64,000 bases of DNA from Paracoccaceae bacterium (GCA_018223125.1 JAAEZA010000018.1:2505-66504), one strand, 5' to 3'; positions 1-10,035 are shown, counted from the first letter of the stretch. Notes: generated by a model not told the origin, from the sequence alone. Made by a program: numbers and translations.

Positions 1-775
1 CATCCGGTATCTTTTTGGCGTGCTGTTCATCCTGCCTTTTATGGGAACAACGTGGTTGCGCCAGTTGGACAGGCGGCTGGTGGGGGTTTTTGCCCTGCGG
101 GGATTTTGCCATGCGATTGGCGTGATCCTGTGGTTTTACGCTATGGCGCGTATTCCCATCGCCGAGGTCACGGCGATCGGGTATCTTGCCCCGATTTATA
201 TTGCGATCGGTGCTGCGGTCTTTCTGGGTGAGAAACTGGCCCTGCGGCGGATTGCGGCGATTGTCATCGCCTTTATCGGTGCGATGATTATCCTGCGTCC
301 GGGCATTCAGGAAATCAACTCCGGACAGATGGCGCAGGTCCTGTCCGCGCCGATGTTTGCGGTGTCCTATCTGGTGGCCAAGCGGCTGACCGCGCAGGCT
401 GGCCCGTCGCTGGTGGTGGGAATGCTGAGCGTGTTTGTGACCATCGGTATTGCACCCTTTGCATTCGCAGTCTGGAAGACACCCGCCCTGACAGAGGTAT
501 TCTGGCTTGCGCTGGTGGGGGCCTTGGCGACTACGGCCCATTTCACCATGACCAAAGCCCTTAAGGCAGCGCCTTTGGCCGTGACCCAGCCCGTCACATT
601 CCTGCAATTGATCTGGGCCACTATCTTGGGGCTGGTGGTCTTCGGGGAGGCGGTCGATGTTTTTGTGCTGCTGGGGGGTGGTTTGATCATCTGTTCCGTG
701 AGTTTCATTTCTTATCGGGAGTGGGTGCTGTCGCGGCGCGCGAAAACGCCCCCCGCAGCGGCTGTGAAAACCTGA
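1..775 (+). CDS. DMT/EamA-family transporter, 5'-truncated by window edge
   Basis: ORF 20..775 stays open in frame back to base 2. It is a multi-TM hydrophobic protein with an EamA-type segment (GYLAPIYIAIGAAVFLGEKL). The family is normally ~290 aa, so the true start lies upstream of the window. Confidence 0.8.
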   Translation, partial: IRYLFGVLFILPFMGTTWLRQLDRRLVGVFALRGFCHAIGVILWFYAMARIPIAEVTAIGYLAPIYIAIGAAVFLGEKLALRRIAAIVIAFIGAMIILRPGIQEINSGQMAQVLSAPMFAVSYLVAKRLTAQAGPSLVVGMLSVFVTIGIAPFAFAVWKTPALTEVFWLALVGALATTAHFTMTKALKAAPLAVTQPVTFLQLIWATILGLVVFGEAVDVFVLLGGGLIICSVSFISYREWVLSRRAKTPPAAAVKT

Positions 776-2342: not shown

Positions 2343-2352
2343 CGGCTTTGTT

Positions 2353-2583
2353 TTAAGGGACCAGTTTGTCACGGAAAACGTAAGAAACGATCTGGTCCCG
2401 CGAAATATTGAAGCGGCTGCGCAGGGTTTCGTCGTCCATGTCCTGCATCGCGTTGATGATCTCAACGCGGGAAGAGGCCAGTGTGATGTCCTCAAAGAAG
2501 CGCAGCACAGCGGAGCCGGCGGTTTGCAGGGCAGACCAGATAGCGGCGCCGAGTGTCGGTTTGGTGTCAGTGATATAAGCCAT
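2353..2583 (-). CDS. small DUF1127-like protein
   Basis: ORF 2353..2598. The likely start is MAYITD (ATG ending at 2583), downstream of AAGGAA. The C-terminal MDDETLRSRFNISRDQI resembles the DUF1127 L-x-D-x-G-I-S-R-x-x-I motif. The assignment is from memory only. Confidence 0.5.
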   Translation of the reverse strand: MAYITDTKPTLGAAIWSALQTAGSAVLRFFEDITLASSRVEIINAMQDMDDETLRSRFNISRDQIVSYVFRDKLVP

Positions 2584-2747
2584 TTTCATTCCTTTCACTC
2601 CGTGTCAGGAGCCTGTCATACTGTTGTGGCTTAAATGGAAGCTGGAAGGCATTTGGACAACGCACAATCAGTTAAAGCCGATATGTGCTTTTTGCATGGC
2701 TGTAGCGAATTTGCGTGTTCGCGAAGGTATTGCGTTGAGCCTGACGC

Positions 2748-3821
2748 ATGGATGCGGCATTGAGGGCGCAAAGGAGACAGGGCATGTTGGATGCGGGAAT
2801 TCGGGCTGTACTGGACGCTTTGGGCGTTGCAGTTTTTGTGGTGGACAGCAACCAGACCATAGTGTTTCGCAATGAATCCGCGGTCAGCCTGTTCGGGACA
2901 GGCACGAAGGGGCGCAAGCTGGCCCATTACGTGCCAAACAAGCGGTGCATCCGCGCGGTTGAGGATACAATCGACGAAGGCGGGCAGGCCAAAGTGGACG
3001 TGCGTCTGCAACTGGTTGTGCCAACGACATTTTCCATGACAGCCGTGCGGGTTGACCCCGACGCGAGCCGCACTGACGTGCTGGTGGTGGTCAGCTTCGA
3101 AGATGTCAGCCATATTCAGGAAGCCGAGCAGATGCGGTCTGATTTCGTGGCGAACGTCAGCCACGAATTGCGCTCTCCGTTGACGGCGCTCTATGGATTT
3201 ATCGAGACCCTTCAAGGGCCTGCCCGATCGGATCCGGAAGCATCCGACCGGTTTTTGTATCTTATGGAGAAAGAAGCAGCACGCATGGCGCGGCTGATTG
3301 ATGACCTTCTGTCTTTGTCGAAATTGCAGTCCGAAGAAAAATACGCGCCCACAACTGTTGTGAATTTACAGCCAATTCTGGACCGGTTGAGCGCATCGCT
3401 TGAACCGATACTGGATCGGGAAAAGACAACTGTAACACTGGATATTCCTGCCGATCTGCCCGAGGTGATAGGGGTTGCGGATGAGTTGACACAGGTGTTT
3501 GCAAACCTGATCGAAAACGCGGCAAAATATTCCCGCAACGGGGCGGTTGTGTCCATCGAGGCCTCTGTAGACAAGGTAGAGCCGGACATGGTGCGCGTAA
3601 CGGTCAGCGATCAGGGCGAAGGAATCGCACCGGAACATATCGCACGTCTGACAGAGCGGTTTTACCGGATCGACAAGGGACGCTCCCGTGACAAGGGGGG
3701 CACCGGATTGGGGTTGGCCATTGTGAAACACATCCTGATGCGCCACCGTGCGCGTTTGCAGATCGACAGCACTGTTGGTGTCGGCAGCCGGTTTTCCGTG
3801 ATTATCCCGCGGGCTATTTAA
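2748..3821 (+). CDS. soluble PAS-domain sensor histidine kinase (PhoR-like HisKA/HATPase core)
   Basis: The 357-aa ORF has no TM segment and a PAS-like N-terminus. Motifs seen: H-box SHELRSPLTAL, N-box NLIENAAKYS, and G-boxes DQGEGI and GGTGLGLAIVKH. No response regulator gene is adjacent. Confidence 0.85.
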   Translation: MDAALRAQRRQGMLDAGIRAVLDALGVAVFVVDSNQTIVFRNESAVSLFGTGTKGRKLAHYVPNKRCIRAVEDTIDEGGQAKVDVRLQLVVPTTFSMTAVRVDPDASRTDVLVVVSFEDVSHIQEAEQMRSDFVANVSHELRSPLTALYGFIETLQGPARSDPEASDRFLYLMEKEAARMARLIDDLLSLSKLQSEEKYAPTTVVNLQPILDRLSASLEPILDREKTTVTLDIPADLPEVIGVADELTQVFANLIENAAKYSRNGAVVSIEASVDKVEPDMVRVTVSDQGEGIAPEHIARLTERFYRIDKGRSRDKGGTGLGLAIVKHILMRHRARLQIDSTVGVGSRFSVIIPRAI

Positions 3822-3856
3822 CTCTGGGGACGGGGTGTGAATAATCCGTTAATAGG

Positions 3857-3896
3857 GAACCGGCAGACAACTTGTGTTTGACACAAATGCCGGTTC
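3857..3896 (+). terminator. compound hairpin downstream of the PAS kinase gene (possible terminator)
   Basis: GAACCGGCA (3857-3865) pairs with TGCCGGTTC (3888-3896). An inner TTGTGT/ACACAA stem lies within. The T-tract is weak, followed by AT-rich sequence. Confidence 0.35.
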
Positions 3897-3951
3897 TGCC
3901 GTCTGATATTTATAAACAATTACGGAATTCGTATTTAAGGGATGTATCGGA

Positions 3952-6042
3952 ATGGATTTCAGCTGGAGCACGCCGCAAGCAACATCTGTCGTGGACGGAT
4001 ACCGCGACTGGTTTGATCATGTGTACCAGCCCCCCGCCGGCGGTTCGCTTAGCTACCGGCCTTTGCTGGTGCGGGTCAGGCCGACGGGCCGGCCTGCAAC
4101 GCTGGGCAAGACGCTGCGTTGGCTGAAGCGCAAGCTTGATTCTGCGGGGCAGGGTGCGGATTTCCTGATGGACGGGGTGGAACGGGCCTATCTTGAACAT
4201 CTTCTGGACCATCCCCCGAGTGAAGGCGATGCACCGGACCTGTTCCTGCATGTGTCACGAACGCCTGACGGTTTCGCAGCGGATTACGGCAAATGGCTGC
4301 GACCGCTTCGGAATGGTGCCGCGCGCCCGCCGGTGCCTTCCACGCCTGCGCCTGCGGGCGGGGCGCCACGCCCTGCGCCGGTTGTGGCGGTGATTGATGA
4401 TGCCATCGGTTATCTGAACGCGCGGTTCACAACCAAAGCGGCGCATCAGCGTAACACGCGGCTGGCAGCCGTCTGGCTGCAGAGCGAAGACCAGATTACC
4501 GAAACCAACGGACAATACGCCATGTCCTGCGGTCGGGTTCTGAGTGCACAAGAGATTGATGCTGTTCTTGCGAAAGGAAGCAGGCTGGACGAGTCCGCAG
4601 AATACAGCGCGATGAACAAGGCGCTCTATGACCGGCAGATCAGTCCGGTCTGGCACGGCATCACGGCGGGGGGCGGATCCGAATTGGCCAGCACCCATGG
4701 CACAATCGTTACGGATATTGCAGCGGGTGCCGATCCGCAGGCGGAACCGGACGGGCTGGGGGACTGCCCGATGCTTGCTGTCCAACTGCCGCCGCAAGCG
4801 ATCGAGGATACGTCAGGTGCAAAATTGCAGCCCTATGTGGTCCGTGCCCTGCGCTGGATAATCTGGCAGGCGGACAGGTTGCAGGTGGAAGGCCAGCACC
4901 GCCCGCTGGTGGTGAATATCTCTCTTGGTGTGCTGGCAGGGTCAAAGGACGGCACCAGTCTGATCGAACGCCAGATCGCAGCCGAGATCTACCGGCGCGA
5001 GACCCGAACCGGCAGTCCGATGCGTGTGGTCTATGCTTTCGGGAATGACGGGTTGACGCGGCAGGTCGGGTCTGTCGATCTGGAGCCGGAGGAGCCGCAA
5101 TCCGTGACGTTGCGCGTACAGTCAGAGGATTACACGCCAAGCTTTGTGGAATTGCGCCCTGATGACATGGGGCAACTGACGCTCGGGATTGACAGCTTGC
5201 TGTCACAGCCGCTTGCGCTCGGAAGTATTCCGGCCGGTCACTGCGTTTCGCTGGCCCGCGGGTCTGCGCCTGCGGTTGCGCGTATCTATGCTATCGGGCC
5301 GCAGGATCTGGACGGCGGCGGGCAAACGGCGGGGTATTACCTGCTGGCGATTGCGCCGACGGCCTGTTTCGAAACGGGCAAACCGCTGGCGCCGAGCGGG
5401 CCGTGGCGGATAACGCTTGGCACCGGCGCACCGGCACAAACTGTTCGCTTGGAAGTCCAGCGGGACGACCGGCCCTTGGGATTTCAGGCGCTGGCGCGTC
5501 AGTCCTATCTGGATGATAGCGCGCTTTGGGTCTGGAAACCGCCGCAAAAAACCCCTTATGCCCCGAAGGCCGACGGGCCGGTCACGCGGATCGGCACGGA
5601 ATCGGGCTGGGTGTCAGCGGCTATGCCAGAGCAGGTTTACACTGTGGGGGCCGCTTTGTGTGATACCGGATTTGCAGCGCCTTATTCGGCGACGGGTAGC
5701 CCGTTGTCAGCAAGGGAACCGCGTGTTTCGGCGGTCGGGGACAGCAGTTGGACCCTGCGCGGTGTCCTGGCAAGCGGCACGCTGAGTGGCAGTGCAACAG
5801 TGATGTCGGGCACATCGGTCGCAGCGCCGCAGATCACGCGGCAACTGGCCTTGTTGTTTGCCAGCGGCGCGGATATCGGGCCGTGGAATCCGCCTGCGGT
5901 TAATGCAGAACGGGAAAAGACAGCCCTTGGCGCGCTCGACTGGTCCTTTGTGCCTGAGTACGAGCGGGATCAGCTTGGTCCGCTTGCGGTTTCTGCAGAA
6001 GTCGGGCTGCGGCCCCGTCTTGATGACGGGTACCGCCCTTGA
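3952..6042 (+). CDS. S8 (subtilisin-family) serine peptidase, no signal peptide, unknown N-terminal region and large internal insert
   Basis: ATG 3952 lies 9 nt after TAAGGGA. Catalytic motifs by my count: VVAVID(D149)DAIG, STH(H249)GTIVTDIAAG, YAFGN(N365)DG, MSGTS(S622)VAAPQI. A Pro-rich linker (ARPPVPSTPAPAGGAPRPAP) precedes the catalytic Asp. Confidence 0.8.
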   Translation: MDFSWSTPQATSVVDGYRDWFDHVYQPPAGGSLSYRPLLVRVRPTGRPATLGKTLRWLKRKLDSAGQGADFLMDGVERAYLEHLLDHPPSEGDAPDLFLHVSRTPDGFAADYGKWLRPLRNGAARPPVPSTPAPAGGAPRPAPVVAVIDDAIGYLNARFTTKAAHQRNTRLAAVWLQSEDQITETNGQYAMSCGRVLSAQEIDAVLAKGSRLDESAEYSAMNKALYDRQISPVWHGITAGGGSELASTHGTIVTDIAAGADPQAEPDGLGDCPMLAVQLPPQAIEDTSGAKLQPYVVRALRWIIWQADRLQVEGQHRPLVVNISLGVLAGSKDGTSLIERQIAAEIYRRETRTGSPMRVVYAFGNDGLTRQVGSVDLEPEEPQSVTLRVQSEDYTPSFVELRPDDMGQLTLGIDSLLSQPLALGSIPAGHCVSLARGSAPAVARIYAIGPQDLDGGGQTAGYYLLAIAPTACFETGKPLAPSGPWRITLGTGAPAQTVRLEVQRDDRPLGFQALARQSYLDDSALWVWKPPQKTPYAPKADGPVTRIGTESGWVSAAMPEQVYTVGAALCDTGFAAPYSATGSPLSAREPRVSAVGDSSWTLRGVLASGTLSGSATVMSGTSVAAPQITRQLALLFASGADIGPWNPPAVNAEREKTALGALDWSFVPEYERDQLGPLAVSAEVGLRPRLDDGYRP

Positions 6043-6065
6043 CCAACGGCCTGTGCTGTGCTGCT

Positions 6066-7178
6066 TCAGTTCCACTCCGCCGCTGCGGCATCCCAGAGTT
6101 TGGATAACAGATTTTCCCGTCCCGCGGTTGGCAGGGAAATCTCGGTGCGCGTGATGGTGGGATCATTGCTGCCGGGCATGGTTTCCCCCAGAAGCGACAG
6201 GTTGAAGTCTCCGCGAAATGCGCCGCCGTTGAACGCATAGGCGGATGTTTTGTCGGCCTGACTGCAATAATTTATAATGAATTCAGCAATGGCGATACCA
6301 AGGGTGGCACCGGCCACACTGTCCGTCGGGAAATGGACCCCTGCCACGGTGCGGTTCAGCGCGATGCGGGCTGACAGACGGTAGGCCGGCAACTGGTCTT
6401 GCACGCCCTGCACGGGGGATTGATAATCCGGATCGCTTAACCGTGCCATCAAGGTCGCGGCAGCGAAACTCTCGGTGGCGTGGCCGCTGGGCCATGCGGG
6501 ATGGTCCGGCGAGGCGATCATCGGCTGGACTTCCTGTGCAAAGGCGATGGGGCGGGGGCAGTCGAACAGTTGCTTCAGCCGCATCTCGCAGACCTGACAG
6601 GTCCGCTGCACCAGCGCCATCAGTTCAAGCGTCCATTTGTGGGTGTCGTTGGACAGATAACTGAGCGCACCGAAATAGGGGGTCAGATCACCGATCTGGG
6701 ACTGGATTTCCGCCTGACGGTCGAAGCGCAGGTCTGCTGCGGTGCGCAGGTAATAAAGCTGTTCCTCGAACTGGGGCAGGCCCGGGCGTGTCAGGGTAAC
6801 AATCGGGGTGCGGGTTGTGCCGTCCTGAAAGCTGACGCCTGCTTCGTTGTGGGTGACAGTGCTGTCGACCTGCAAAAGCCCCATTATTTCCGCAAGGATT
6901 GCTGCGGATCGGGGGTAGCTGCCCATCTTCTTGAAGGTCCGCCACTGCCGCGCGGCGCTGCTGCCGTTGCCGGTCTGATAGGACACCGTCCGCTTGGGGG
7001 TGCCGTCCCAGAACCGCTGTGTCCCGTCCCGTGTGGTGATCAGCCCCGTGCTCAGGTAAGGGGAGCCACCCTGTCCCTGTGGCCCTTGCGGTCCCTGAGG
7101 GCCTTGGGGCCCCTGTGGTGTCTGCGGGCCTTGGGGGCCCTGCGGACCTTGGGGCCCTTGTGGTGTATAGATCGCCAT
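6066..7178 (-). CDS. PAP2-superfamily (acid phosphatase / vanadium haloperoxidase-like) protein with N-terminal collagen-like G-P-Q repeats
   Basis: The 370-aa ORF carries three PAP2 motifs: K202-x6-R209-P210 (KQLFDCPRP), PSGH (230-233), and R276-x5-H282-x3-D286 (NRTVAGVHFPTD). The N-terminus is MAIYT(PQG)n. No signal peptide is visible. Confidence 0.8.
   Translation of the reverse strand: MAIYTPQGPQGPQGPQGPQTPQGPQGPQGPQGPQGQGGSPYLSTGLITTRDGTQRFWDGTPKRTVSYQTGNGSSAARQWRTFKKMGSYPRSAAILAEIMGLLQVDSTVTHNEAGVSFQDGTTRTPIVTLTRPGLPQFEEQLYYLRTAADLRFDRQAEIQSQIGDLTPYFGALSYLSNDTHKWTLELMALVQRTCQVCEMRLKQLFDCPRPIAFAQEVQPMIASPDHPAWPSGHATESFAAATLMARLSDPDYQSPVQGVQDQLPAYRLSARIALNRTVAGVHFPTDSVAGATLGIAIAEFIINYCSQADKTSAYAFNGGAFRGDFNLSLLGETMPGSNDPTITRTEISLPTAGRENLLSKLWDAAAAEWN
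7065..7163 (-). repeat. imperfect 9-bp tandem repeats encoding collagen-like Gly-Pro-Gln triplets
   Basis: Minus strand reads cca caa ggg ccc caa ggt ccg cag ggc and so on. This encodes PQGPQGPQGPQGPQTPQGPQGPQGPQGPQGQGG. The units differ at synonymous positions. Confidence 0.9.
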
Positions 7179-7256
7179 AAACCAAACTCCTTAAATCAAT
7201 TGCTTTATTGAATGAATTGACAGGTATTATGTCAAATCATCGCTGCAAACTGCCGC

Positions 7257-8957
7257 ATGTATTCACGATTAATTCACATTCTTGCAAAACACCTGCTAAG
7301 ATACCACCATTGGATGCAAGCTCCGCTGGTGGTGGGTGTCCGAGGGTACTTAAAGGCGAATTTCAGCGTTGTGACAAATTTATTATCAATTCACACCATA
7401 GGGCCACTCCAAATTTTCGGTCCGAACGGAGAAAACCTGACTCCGAAAGGGGCGAAGTCCTGTGCCTTGATCGCCATTCTTGCGCTGACGGATGGAAAGG
7501 CGCGGCCAAGACGGTTTCTCGAAGAAAAACTGTGGAGCGGGCGTGATCCCGAACAGGCCGGCCAGAGTTTGCGTCAGGAACTGACCCAGATCCGCAAGGC
7601 GCTCGGGCCGTATAAATCCTGTTTTGTGGTGGACCGTACGACCGCCAGTCTGGATGCGTCTGCTGTCGTGGTGGACTGGGACAGTACGGAAATCCGCAAG
7701 GATGAGACGCGCGAACTGCTCGAAGGGCTGAGCGTTCGCGATCCTGCGTTTGAAGGCTGGCTGGCAGAGTTGCGCGAAGCCTTCGAACGCCGCAAGACAG
7801 CCCTTGCCGCGCGGCAGAACGGGTTGATCCTGCGGACCCGCAGAAGCAATGCACCGGAAGGGTCCAAAAGCATCCTGAGCGAGGTTCTGGCGGATCAGAT
7901 CGGTCAGAATATTGCCGAACAGGTGCGGGCGTGGCGGCAGGTGAATGTGCGCATGGCCGAGAGCGACCATGATGAGGCAGAGATCGAAATCAGTGCGCAT
8001 GTGGCCGAGGAAGACGGCAACAGTCTTGCCTTTATCCGGCTGATCCATCCGGGAACGGGACGGGTGCTGCATACCCAGAAGGCGCTGGTGAATAGTGGCG
8101 CATTGCAGGCCGCAAGTGAGGATTTGCTGGCTGATATTACGATCGAAGCGGCGGAAAAGACGCTGGATGCGATGGGCAAGGCTTTCCCGTCGGAGCGCCC
8201 CGAACTGGCCTCTGCGGCCATGGCGCGCCGCGCCGTGCGGGAAATGGAAAGTTTCGAAGCCGGACGGCTCGATATTGCGGACCGGCTGTTGGAAAATGCC
8301 TTTGATATTGATCGCAACGGGTTGTTTCTGGCGTGGCAGAGCCTGTTAAAGACCATCCGTCTGACGGAACTGCTGAGCACGGACACACAGGCAGATATGG
8401 CGGTGATAGAGGAGTTGAACCGCAAGGCGATGGAACTGGACGGGGAAAACCCGCTGGTGCAGGCGCTGGTCAGTCAGGTGCAGGTTCTGATGTTCGCAGA
8501 CCTTGGGGCTGCCAATGCAGTGGCGCAGCAGCGGCTTGACCCCAACCTGTCGGGTGCGTTTTCCATGGTGTCCCTTGCCAGTGCGAATATGTGGGACGGC
8601 GACAGCGAAGCCGCCTATGCGCTGACAAAAAAGGCCACGTCAGTTGCGGGACGGTCCAGTTTCCATCACTGGTGGGACACGTTCCACTGTATCAGTTGTA
8701 TTGCCTCGGGCCGCTACGACGAAGCGATCCGTTTCGGGGAATCCGCCCGTAAGGCAGCGCCGAATTTCCGCCCTCCGCTACGGCATCTGCTGGCGCTGTT
8801 TGCCCATACCGGAGAACGGGAAAAGATGCATATCGTGGCAGAGCAGTTGAAACGGCTGGAGCCCGATTTCTCGCTGGAGCGGTTCAAATCCGACGCGGCC
8901 TATCCTGTGCGTACCCTGCGCCACGCCAACCTGCTGGATTTCCCGACAGACGACTAG
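7257..8957 (+). CDS. SARP/BTAD-type winged-helix transcriptional regulator with C-terminal TPR-like region
   Basis: The N-terminal segment IHTIGPLQIFGPNGENLTPKGAKSCALIAILAL...FLEEKLWSGRDPEQAGQSLRQELTQIRKALG matches a SARP/OmpR-type wHTH. It is followed by a BTAD-like LLEGL...DPAFEGWLAELRE segment and a helical repeat C-terminus. No Walker A or receiver domain was seen. The start is uncertain: the first ~38 codons are AT-rich, and an in-frame GTG at 7371 is an alternative. Confidence 0.75.
   Translation: MYSRLIHILAKHLLRYHHWMQAPLVVGVRGYLKANFSVVTNLLSIHTIGPLQIFGPNGENLTPKGAKSCALIAILALTDGKARPRRFLEEKLWSGRDPEQAGQSLRQELTQIRKALGPYKSCFVVDRTTASLDASAVVVDWDSTEIRKDETRELLEGLSVRDPAFEGWLAELREAFERRKTALAARQNGLILRTRRSNAPEGSKSILSEVLADQIGQNIAEQVRAWRQVNVRMAESDHDEAEIEISAHVAEEDGNSLAFIRLIHPGTGRVLHTQKALVNSGALQAASEDLLADITIEAAEKTLDAMGKAFPSERPELASAAMARRAVREMESFEAGRLDIADRLLENAFDIDRNGLFLAWQSLLKTIRLTELLSTDTQADMAVIEELNRKAMELDGENPLVQALVSQVQVLMFADLGAANAVAQQRLDPNLSGAFSMVSLASANMWDGDSEAAYALTKKATSVAGRSSFHHWWDTFHCISCIASGRYDEAIRFGESARKAAPNFRPPLRHLLALFAHTGEREKMHIVAEQLKRLEPDFSLERFKSDAAYPVRTLRHANLLDFPTDD
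7261..7277 (+). promoter_or_regulatory. direct ATTCAC repeats 11 bp apart in the PAP2/regulator divergent spacer (candidate wHTH operator)
   Basis: ATTCAC occurs at 7261-7266 and 7272-7277, one helical turn apart. A third AATTCACA lies at 7388-7395. This is pattern only, with no known consensus to compare. Confidence 0.25.
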
Positions 8958-9066
8958 GCGCTGCGCCTTGCGCCGGCGGCAGGGATTTTGCTGCAGTCGT
9001 GCAAAGCGCACTTGTCTTTTGTGGCCCTTATGCAAAAGCTGTGGGCGAACAACAGAAAGGCAGATC

Positions 9067-10035
9067 ATGGCACTGGAAGACGCAGCAAAAGTCATCGACG
9101 AAGGTATTACGCGGCAAGGGTATAAGGGACACGGGTTTGAAGCAACCTACGCCGGTGTGACCTCCTTTTTGCGCCGGACCTACAGCAAGGATCTGACAGG
9201 GGTTGATCTGGCGGTGACGGGCATTCCCTTTGATTGCGCTGTCACGAACCGCCCCGGCACGCGCCTTGGCCCCCGCGCCATCCGCGAGGCATCAAGCCTG
9301 CAATCCCCTGATGCACCCTATGGCTGGGATGTGGATCCGCTGGTGGAATTCAACGTGGCGGATTATGGTGATGTGGCCTTTGATCATGCCAAAACATGGG
9401 AATTCCCAAAGGCGCTTCAGGCCCATATCGCAGGAATTCTGGCCACAGATACCGCCTGCCTGTCCCTTGGCGGTGATCACTATGTGACCTATCCGATCCT
9501 CAAGGCCCATGTGGAAAAACACGGGCCGGTGTCCCTGCTGCAATTTGATGCCCATAGCGACACTTGGGTCGATGATGATCCGGAACGGATCGACCACGGC
9601 ACCATGTTTTACAAGGCCGTGAAAGAGGGGCTGGTGATCCCCGAACGCTCTGTTCAGGTGGGCATTCGCACCACCAATGAGGACACGCTGGGCGTCAATA
9701 TCATCGACGCGCCCGAGGTGCACCGCATTGGCCCCGAGGCAACGGTAGCGCGGATCAAAGAGGTTCTGGGGGATCATAAAACCTATGTGACCTTTGATAT
9801 TGATGCGCTTGATCCGGCCTTTGCACCGGGGACGGGAACGCCCGTCTGGGGTGGCCTGTCGAGCGCACAGGCCGCAGCGATCCTGCGCGGGCTGGCAGGG
9901 ATCAATGTCATCGGCATGGATGTTGTCGAAGTCTCGCCACAATATGACGTAAGTGGCGCTACGGCCATTGCGGGCGCCCATGTAGCTGTGGAACTGATGT
10001 GTCTCTGGGCCCATCGCCAAAAATTCCGAGCCTGA
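9067..10035 (+). CDS. speB: agmatinase-family ureohydrolase (agmatinase/guanidinobutyrase)
   Basis: ORF 8968..10035. ATG 9067 (MALEDAAK) follows AGAAAGG. Mn-site motifs seen: LSLGGDHYVTYP, QFDAHSDTW, TFDIDALDPAFAPGTGTP. Substrate specificity cannot be told from the sequence. Confidence 0.8.
   Translation: MALEDAAKVIDEGITRQGYKGHGFEATYAGVTSFLRRTYSKDLTGVDLAVTGIPFDCAVTNRPGTRLGPRAIREASSLQSPDAPYGWDVDPLVEFNVADYGDVAFDHAKTWEFPKALQAHIAGILATDTACLSLGGDHYVTYPILKAHVEKHGPVSLLQFDAHSDTWVDDDPERIDHGTMFYKAVKEGLVIPERSVQVGIRTTNEDTLGVNIIDAPEVHRIGPEATVARIKEVLGDHKTYVTFDIDALDPAFAPGTGTPVWGGLSSAQAAAILRGLAGINVIGMDVVEVSPQYDVSGATAIAGAHVAVELMCLWAHRQKFRA

Follow-up and report, generated by a model that had tools for sequence, protein, structure and literature searches.

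The question raised by this locus is whether three neighbouring genes, encoding an S8 subtilase (S8), a PAP2-fold protein (PAP2) and a regulator with a SARP-type winged helix-turn-helix (wHTH) and a C-terminal TPR region, form a functional unit and, if so, what this unit may do. The genes lie in a 64,000-nucleotide stretch of DNA, here called the window (GCA_018223125.1, JAAEZA010000018.1:2505-66504), from a Rhodobacteraceae metagenome-assembled genome (MAG) near Neptunicoccus. A preliminary description of the window had proposed that the trio is an undescribed functional module, and the layout that it gave, i.e. three adjacent genes, their strands and the 23-bp gap between the convergent S8 and PAP2 genes, is borne out by the listing and translation of the open reading frames (ORFs). 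The regulator gene is divergent from PAP2 across an AT-rich spacer, which measures 192 bp if the regulator starts at GTG 7371; this is the likely true start, to judge from the resulting 528 residues, a length like that of the 93%-identical N. cionae protein (Table 1). As detailed below, the three genes are co-inherited and an operator-like repeat is common to both enzyme promoters.

Species-representative genomes were scanned for relatives of S8, which were found in 374 genomes, and 80 loci were kept; gene content was tabulated for 86 loci using ORFs and iterated hidden Markov models. The trio S8(+), PAP2(-) and regulator(+) is adjacent in about 76 of these 86 related loci and most of the exceptions are contig ends, i.e. 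contig ends aside, the three genes are found together at nearly all related loci, which supports the module proposed in the preliminary description. In one locus (L060) S8 is broken. Carriers of the trio belong to Rhodobacterales, Rhizobiales and Burkholderiales; its genomic contexts number at least six and its gene orders three. In the Neptunicoccus/Amylibacter clade it is found between an aminotransferase and a kinase on one side and agmatinase genes on the other, in a large multi-genus clade (Tropicibacter among the contexts) it adjoins gyrB, DUF1194 and cytochrome c, and in Oricola it adjoins rhamnose genes and an integrase; the other sites are in Paracoccus, a JGI metagenome, Hydrogenophaga (Betaproteobacteria) and two MAGs. 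In gene orders B and C, PAP2 and S8 run in the same direction with hardly any space between them, as operons, with a 16-nt overlap in L088 and a 15-nt gap in L089. Co-localisation, independence of context and a common cis-element make the three genes a linked unit, and the functional linkage that had been put forward as a guess gains support from the three gene orders, the varied contexts and the operator-like repeat common to both enzyme promoters.

The same comparison does not support the suggestion that the region 2350-8960 is a recent insertion which splits a coherent catabolic set. The synteny is stable within the Neptunicoccus/Amylibacter clade, where the order aminotransferase-kinase-trio-agmatinase-alcohol dehydrogenase (ADH) is kept down to about 56-62% S8 identity. 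Further conserved partners were considered, namely gyrB, DUF1194, cytochrome c, SLT_2/PG_binding and an RTX-Hint protein, and were rejected as lineage synteny rather than parts of the module. The last of these is a protein of ~1,600 aa with RTX repeats and a C-terminal Hint domain, whose gene follows that of the regulator in 11 loci, all from a single clade (L031:13091-17884, + strand).

The common cis-element is an operator-like direct repeat. Alignment of the PAP2-regulator spacers of nine loci from the window's clade revealed a conserved repeat, TGTGAA-N5-CGTGAA, upstream of the PAP2 promoter. The 64-kb window contains exactly two exact matches to the operator, one per enzyme promoter and each 25-26 nt upstream of a TTGACA hexamer; the PAP2-side copy lies within the spacer that PAP2 and the divergent regulator gene have in common. 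The TTGACA and TTCAAT hexamers of the putative PAP2 promoter are kept in 9 loci of the GPQ clade while the spacer is otherwise diverged, and no convincing -10 hexamer was seen in the sequence of the S8 promoter. A scan of the 200 nt upstream of each enzyme gene in 68 loci, with at most one mismatch allowed, placed GTGAA-N6-GTKAA ahead of PAP2 in 53 loci, where it lies mostly at -96 to -128, and ahead of S8 in 54; the background rate would give ~0.003 matches per region.

Winged helices of the OmpR/SARP type bind direct repeats of 11-bp spacing. The candidate operator has this period, like the sites of other SARP/OmpR-type binders, and as read from the sequence such repeats of ~11 bp are situated at the candidate target promoters of the regulator. 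The operator is present at the wHTH-type loci L005, L088 and L089 and is absent from both of the cyclase-type loci checked (L006 and L087, described below), which serve as an internal control. Because the 11-bp repeat fits an OmpR/SARP wHTH and the operator tracks the wHTH-type regulators, the regulator is the obvious candidate binder, and we strongly infer that its wHTH binds GTGAA-N6-GTKAA. Unlike SARP sites, the candidate operator is placed upstream of an intact -35 hexamer and does not replace it. Extra copies occur just past S8 in two loci: those in L088 (11620-11646, - strand) are between S8 and a gene of the animal haem peroxidase family, and the site in L089 (10750-10765, - strand) precedes, by about 95 nt, a gene of 134 aa without a Pfam match. 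These copies could mark further members of the regulon.

The regulator ORF by itself gave no Pfam match. A profile of its orthologues, compared with the PDB, matched TPR proteins over residues ~338-511 and, with the first ~90 residues, EmbR (2fez, 1.6e-4) and AfsR (8hvr, 2.3e-4); weak Trans_reg_C and TPR matches are seen in Pfam searches with the orthologues. In other words, the OmpR-type winged helix that characterises the SARP family is recognised by a weak but consistent match. The orthologues are 528-535 aa long and are named AfsR/SARP family in their sources, and the SARP-wHTH/TPR assignment of the preliminary description is supported by profile and name. The wHTH contains a dense run of invariant or near-invariant positions and is among the best-conserved stretches of the protein. 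An N-terminal wHTH combined with a C-terminal TPR region is also found in SARP/AfsR-EmbR-type proteins and in alphaproteobacterial wHTH-TolB-like-TPR or cyclase-TPR proteins. Unlike SARP/AfsR proteins, the regulator has no NB-ARC/ATPase module and no natural-product cluster under its control, and no BTAD was detected: PF03704 has no match in the window regulator, the match in L004 is faint and misplaced, and BTAD is seen in distant homologues alone. In L006 and L087 a weak Guanylate_cyc N-domain takes the place of the wHTH, and in both a gene of the Crp family, encoding a cyclic-nucleotide-binding protein, adjoins the module (L006:6071-6823, L087:11020-11670), which suggests that cyclase and Crp together stand in for an output by direct DNA binding.

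The most unusual feature of the locus, which is not in the preliminary description, is an oligopeptide tail that is hypervariable yet internally identical across the whole PAP2 family. Met and up to two odd tripeptides head each PAP2 orthologue; tandem copies of a single unit follow in register, 6-18 of them in orthologues of the tripeptide type. In the window the consensus tripeptide is found in 9 of 10 units and the array has 8 different 9-mers. By genome the units are GPQ, NSQ, GGQ, GHE, GTQ, GAQ, GTH, GYD, GGK, GNH, GIH, SHQ, AGK, GGH, GVE, AVE, GVN, GWE, AYD and more. Any residue may stand at position 2, and position 3 is polar without exception; position 1 is small, and among the 75 loci scored for repeats at least 15 have a residue other than Gly there (NSQ, SHQ, AVE, AYD, NAQ). 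Distant clades have (MSGG)8, (GGGAG)8-10, (AGDGG)6, heptads or other triplets, i.e. the period can be 3, 4, 5 or 7.

The constancy of the units within an array is not reflected in the DNA. The codon analysis of 75 arrays showed that 769 of 786 units (97.8%) encode the exact consensus of their locus, whereas the 9-mers are shuffled at synonymous positions, the median array having 8 versions at the DNA level; serine codons switch between TCN and AGY and arginine codons between CGN and AGA. Since the codons are scrambled while the peptide is constant, the identity of the units is kept by selection at the peptide level and not by recent slippage, although fresh duplications are visible in a few arrays. 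When the unit is followed along a tree built from the concatenated module, it shifts mostly one residue at a time (GGQ-GAQ-GVE-AVE; GHE-GWE-GYD-AYD; GHE-GHQ-SHQ). The tail is always in frame and preceded by a Shine-Dalgarno sequence, which in the window (AAGGAG) supports a translation start ahead of the array, and the second residue is invariably A, P, T, S or G. In the AlphaFold2 (AF2) model the tail is disordered. On these sequence patterns we consider the tail to be functional rather than a result of drift.

The term collagen-repeat, used in the preliminary description, applies in part. The Gly-X-Y run is there as the window's own case of the family-wide tail, but its Collagen match is below the Pfam threshold (19.6 vs 27.2 bits). 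In real collagens the X and Y residues differ from one triplet to the next. A collagen-like stalk was rejected as the conserved property of the tail, because at least 15 loci have units without Gly. The array is also a source of annotation errors. Gene callers often begin PAP2 after or inside it (P0118, P0120, P0196 and others, as compared with the DNA of L036, L026 and L087), the Hydrogenophaga gene call begins at the seventh of eight MSGG units, and P0133 looks like a frameshifted reading of the repeat. As a consequence most database sequences of the family are without the tail, and the frequent miscalled starts may explain why it went unnoticed.

The remainder of PAP2 is a recognisable enzyme. 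The protein matches PF01569 (E 1e-13; 51.2 bits vs a cut-off of 27.2) and all three motifs of the superfamily and of class A, KX6RP, PSGH and RX5HX3D, are present. K202, R209-P210, P230-S231-G232-H233, R276, H282 and D286 are invariant in 30 homologues, just as D149, H249, N365 and S622 of S8 are in 23; the catalytic motifs reported as intact in the preliminary description are so, and by these residues both enzymes look active. In Foldseek searches with the AF2 model (pLDDT 87) the core aligned with 7f17, 1iw8, PhoN and PhoC at TMt ~0.63 and a root-mean-square deviation of ~3 A, whereas the vanadium haloperoxidases 4cit, 4usz, 3w35 and 9l8x reached TMt 0.24-0.31: the shared active-site region alone aligns and the large two-bundle architecture of those enzymes (about 450-650 aa) is not seen. 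According to the model the core is therefore closer by fold to class-A acid phosphatases than to haloperoxidases, so that the earlier term haloperoxidase-like is right about the PAP2 superfamily and imprecise about the branch. The three signature motifs and the core fold are those of the class-A enzymes PhoN and PhoC and of their counterparts from E. blattae and P. aeruginosa. These are periplasmic proteins of about 210-230 aa, unlike the protein described here, which has no signal peptide and carries an N-domain of ~110 aa in addition to the repeat tail.

One could also regard the trio as a natural-product or halogenation cassette, with PAP2 as a vanadium haloperoxidase under SARP control as in actinomycete clusters. 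The SARP-type regulator, Pfam VCPO_2nd matches on PAP2 homologues, a profile match to vanadium bromoperoxidases at E 2e-9 and, in L088, the haem peroxidase gene with nearby operator-like sites after the module are in accordance with this. We consider it extremely improbable, given that the fold is far nearer the small class-A phosphatases and that genes for building a scaffold co-occur in none of the contexts examined.

The PAP2-core family comprises about 930 clusters at 50% identity. A tail-less paralogue of ~500 aa, absent from the window, is divergent from S8 in a large subclade (L003:8253-9740, - strand), where some 31 loci have it in this place (e.g. L016-L026, L029-L037, L050-L067). It has no Pfam match and is probably a pseudo-enzyme, since its catalytic His is replaced in L003, the copy examined (RVVSGGFYPSEN).

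S8 matches PF00082 over residues 143-658 (E 1e-13; 51.8 bits vs a cut-off of 21.8) and has the D-H-S triad in the order of the S8 peptidases as well as the oxyanion Asn. N365 and S622 are 257 residues apart, and the AF2 model (pLDDT 84, pTM 0.90) places a beta-rich insertion between them. The 11 best PDB matches of this model in Foldseek are all clostridial CspB, CspA or CspC, CspB 4i0w being the first (E 3e-19, TMt 0.70). Csp proteases are characterised by the prodomain that they retain and by a central jellyroll that interrupts the subtilase domain (PMC3567191). The model of S8 resembles this type in its all-beta insertion and N-terminal alpha/beta domain. The likeness to Csp subtilases thus consists in the absence of a signal peptide, the prodomain-like alpha/beta domain at the N-terminus and the large beta-rich insertion before the catalytic Ser. 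CspB activates pro-SleC by proteolysis, cleaving near its N-terminus (PMC3567191), i.e. its job is to cut the N-terminal pro-region off another enzyme, and the same role is proposed here for S8. The differences are that S8 has 13-18% sequence identity to Csp, that its hosts are non-sporulating Proteobacteria, that its partner is a PAP2-fold enzyme and not a cortex lytic enzyme, and that the proposed pro-region is a tandem oligopeptide array. A role in spore germination is inapplicable, because the hosts are non-sporulating Alpha- and Betaproteobacteria and there is no conserved SleC-like partner.

A different reading of S8, as a tripeptidyl-peptidase that trims tripeptides off a free N-terminus, was attractive in that all 74 arrays start at Met+3k and that residue 2 is always removable by MetAP. 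It was rejected as a general model because tails in other clades have periods of 4, 5 and 7, because the register is largely inherited, and because there is no match to TPPII (none among the 50 Foldseek matches listed for S8, best by E-value, of which 18 have E <= 0.001). S8 also has a strongly conserved segment at residues 500-522 (about 5449-5517), VQRDD...GRQSYLD, in which R504, D506 and Q517 are invariant and which forms a low-confidence loop in the model.

Export signals are lacking in both enzymes, as the preliminary description had noted. The highest 19-residue Kyte-Doolittle means are 1.09 for S8 and 1.47 for PAP2, and neither these two proteins nor the regulator have a hydrophobic N-terminus or a transmembrane-like segment. 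A periplasmic or membrane location of PAP2 is not indicated, the N-terminus being the repeat tail in all orthologues. That both enzymes appear cytoplasmic though their families are usually exported might hint at an anti-phage or conflict system, in which the TPR protein would be the sensor and protease and phosphatase the effectors. The compact trio in differing contexts, once beside an integrase (Oricola), and the fast-evolving repeat would suit such a system. Nevertheless, PADLOC gave no significant match (the single hit of S8 is IetS at E 0.045, and PAP2 and the regulator have none), large clades show stable chromosomal synteny (gyrB/DUF1194/cytochrome c or aminotransferase/agmatinase) and not variable islands, and the output of the sensor is a transcription factor, not an effector-activating domain. 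A conflict function is in our opinion very improbable.

How these parts might work together can be put as follows. The three genes are inherited together and would form one signalling and enzyme module. The C-terminal TPR region of the regulator may be the signal-sensing part, while the wHTH would bind the direct repeat and drive both enzyme promoters; in some lineages a nucleotide cyclase and the adjacent Crp-like factor would do the job of the wHTH. Binding of the regulator to the repeat would put a cytoplasmic, Csp-like pro-subtilase and a cytoplasmic PAP2-fold histidine phosphatase under common control. The protease may then act on the disordered N-terminal tail of identical short peptides, and cutting of the tail would either mature or time the PAP2 enzyme, as CspB does with pro-SleC, or free the repeated oligopeptides. 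We regard it as quite possible, if just short of probable, that the trio is such a self-contained module in which S8 and PAP2 are controlled by the regulator and the substrate of S8 is the PAP2 tail.

Several points weigh against this proposal. The step by which S8 acts on the tail is a hypothesis that draws on analogy, gene coupling and the selection pattern, i.e. on indirect arguments. Sister-pair contrasts and inspection of the substrate-binding segments, a comparison confounded by divergence and phylogeny, gave no clear sign that residues of S8 or of the regulator covary with the tail unit. Within one mismatch the operator is missing in about 15 of 68 loci, the Oricola locus L004 included, and its assignment to the regulator is inferred from co-occurrence. 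In two Rhodobacterales MAG loci, L052 and L058, S8 is found without a detectable PAP2 or regulator gene nearby; L058 has an unannotated minus-strand gene of 374 aa at the PAP2 position, which may be a divergent partner or a sign of a degraded module. Finally, on sequence grounds the phosphatase and haloperoxidase chemistries of PAP2 are inseparable.

The proposal is also challenged by a simpler explanation, according to which the tail is a mere flexible or oligomerising stalk, resembling collagen where the unit is Gly-X-Y, and S8 and PAP2 are co-regulated because they act in parallel on a common cytoplasmic substrate or in a stress response, PAP2 not being processed by S8. The majority of units are rich in Gly, which recurs at every third position, the window tail has its weak Collagen matches and is disordered in the model, and S8 does not detectably covary with the unit, all of which would be expected of a stalk. 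It is conspicuous, on the other hand, that at least 15 of the 75 repeat-scored loci have Gly-free units, that a spacer needs no 98% identical units under saturated synonymous change, and that PAP2 and S8 are tightly coupled at the operon-type loci. For these reasons we find the stalk explanation doubtful.

If the tail is a substrate, its fragments could themselves be signals. In an RRNPP-like circuit S8 would free many identical oligopeptides (GPQ in the window) from the tail, and the TPR region of the regulator would bind them and thereby alter the transcription of the module, so that the different units would be species-specific 'pherotypes'. Units kept identical by selection while the unit changes stepwise between lineages, an HTH-type regulator with a TPR sensor encoded next door, and the retention of the sensor part of the regulator while its output domain is swapped are what one would expect of such a circuit. 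The RRNPP(A) systems, which are confined to Bacillota and their phages, likewise combine an S8-type protease, repeated short peptides, a TPR-containing HTH regulator and lineage-specific peptide sequences: Phr peptides are matured by S8 proteases, and Bacillota include cases in which pheromone propeptides are duplicated in tandem (PMC11343458). The peptides of those systems derive from small secreted propeptides and are re-imported when mature, whereas in the module described here the repeats are enzyme-fused, nothing is exported and the wHTH is not an XRE-type HTH. A small secreted propeptide gene, a signal peptide, an exporter and Opp-type importer genes were all looked for in the module and are absent. 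Moreover, covariation between regulator and tail unit was not detected, the regulator is more conserved than a receptor that switches specificity would be expected to be (78-82% identity between GAQ and GVE loci), and near-pure Gly/Ala tails such as GGGAG would be poor ligands. The RRNPP-like circuit therefore seems unlikely to us. The narrower version, in which the tail is an enzyme-fused multi-copy precursor from which S8 frees many identical, lineage-specific peptides intracellularly for the TPR region of the regulator, be it of the wHTH or the cyclase type, to sense, making a cytoplasmic signalling or timing circuit of this kind in Proteobacteria, we hold to be quite unlikely.

Multi-core precursors as such are well known. 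The Kex2-processed repeat peptides of fungi (ustiloxin) and the BURP-domain fused precursors of plants carry many identical cores per polypeptide, which are processed by a subtilisin/kexin-type protease, and the BURP precursors further resemble the PAP2 tail in that their cores are joined to an enzyme domain. These precursors are eukaryotic and secretory and have spacer and recognition sites as well as dedicated modifying enzymes, whereas the PAP2 tail is cytoplasmic and its units, which are often inert in chemical terms (GGQ, GAQ), follow one another without a break.

A description of the module was found neither among NCBIfam equivalogs, in PADLOC or Rfam, nor in the full-text literature searched, and a check for characterised orthologues returned none for the three proteins, i.e. 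no NCBIfam equivalog, no PADLOC entry and generic names only. The components are members of known families and the logic resembles that of known protease-zymogen or peptide-sensing systems. For the enzyme-fused, selection-homogenised and lineage-switching oligopeptide array, no described counterpart was found in the literature searched. Identical peptides that persist under codon drift and are replaced stepwise between genera are normally a product or a recognition element and not a linker. If the proposal is true, zymogen proteolysis of the Csp type would extend from clostridial spores to marine and soil Proteobacteria; if instead peptides are sensed inside the cell, the tail would be a new kind of signal encoding, in which an enzyme carries the signal as an array of repeats. 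In either case the module puts on the map a function-unknown family that is large in both its PAP2-core clusters (about 930) and its S8 relatives (374 species-representative genomes). Hosts that can be cultured, among them Sagittula, Salipiger, Mameliella and Neptunicoccus, make the hypotheses open to direct tests.

Table 1. Features of the S8-PAP2-regulator locus. Positions are those of the window unless residues are given.
Feature	Position	Strand	Remarks
S8 subtilase gene	3952-6042	+	696 aa
PAP2-fold gene	6066-7178	-	370 aa
Regulator ORF	7257-8957	+	open from ATG 7257; probable start GTG 7371
Regulator (REG), SARP-type wHTH, central region and C-terminal TPR	7371-8957	+	528 aa from GTG 7371
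Operator-like direct repeat, S8 side, TGTGAATAATCCGTTAA	3836-3852	+	GTGAA-N6-GTTAA, 11-bp period; GTGAA starts 115 nt before S8 ATG
TTGACA, -35-like hexamer	3878-3883	+	25 nt downstream of S8 operator; read from sequence
Operator-like direct repeat, PAP2 side, TGTGAATTAATCGTGAA	7262-7278	-	GTGAA 99 nt before PAP2 ATG; ends 26 nt upstream of -35 hexamer
Putative PAP2 promoter	7207-7235	-	TTGACA 7235-7230, 17-nt spacer, TTCAAT 7212-7207
Shine-Dalgarno sequence AAGGAG	7187-7192	-	8 nt before PAP2 ATG 7178-7176; kept in clade alignment
Tripeptide array TPQ-(GPQ)4-TPQ-(GPQ)4	7077-7166	-	in register with Met1-AIY; then GQGG
PAP2 oligopeptide-repeat tail, predicted disordered	residues 1-38		AF2 pLDDT below 50
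PAP2 family-specific N-domain	residues ~40-150		no structural match
PAP2 class-A acid-phosphatase-like core	residues ~150-305		carries all catalytic motifs
S8 N-terminal alpha/beta prodomain-like domain	residues ~1-120		AF2 model
S8 Pro-rich linker	residues ~121-143
S8 subtilase core			D149, H249, N365, S622
S8 beta-rich insertion between N365 and S622	residues ~372-520 and beyond		AF2 model

The genes around the trio in the window belong to its lineage context. A soluble PAS histidine kinase (2748-3821, + strand) scores 320 bits, slightly under the PhoR equivalog cut-off of 334, and no cognate response regulator was found within the 13 kb examined. This kinase and the small ORF upstream of it (2353-2598, - strand) adjoin the module solely in the Neptunicoccus/Amylibacter clade; they are context of that clade and not parts of the module. 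On the other side, the window has one agmatinase-family gene (8968-10035) ahead of the zinc-dependent ADH gene, where all close relatives have two tandem copies (L001:15124-17038, L002:15120-17034, L008-L015). The listed start of the agmatinase-family ORF, TTG 8968, adds ~33 aa before an internal Met (residue 34), and this Met may be the real start.

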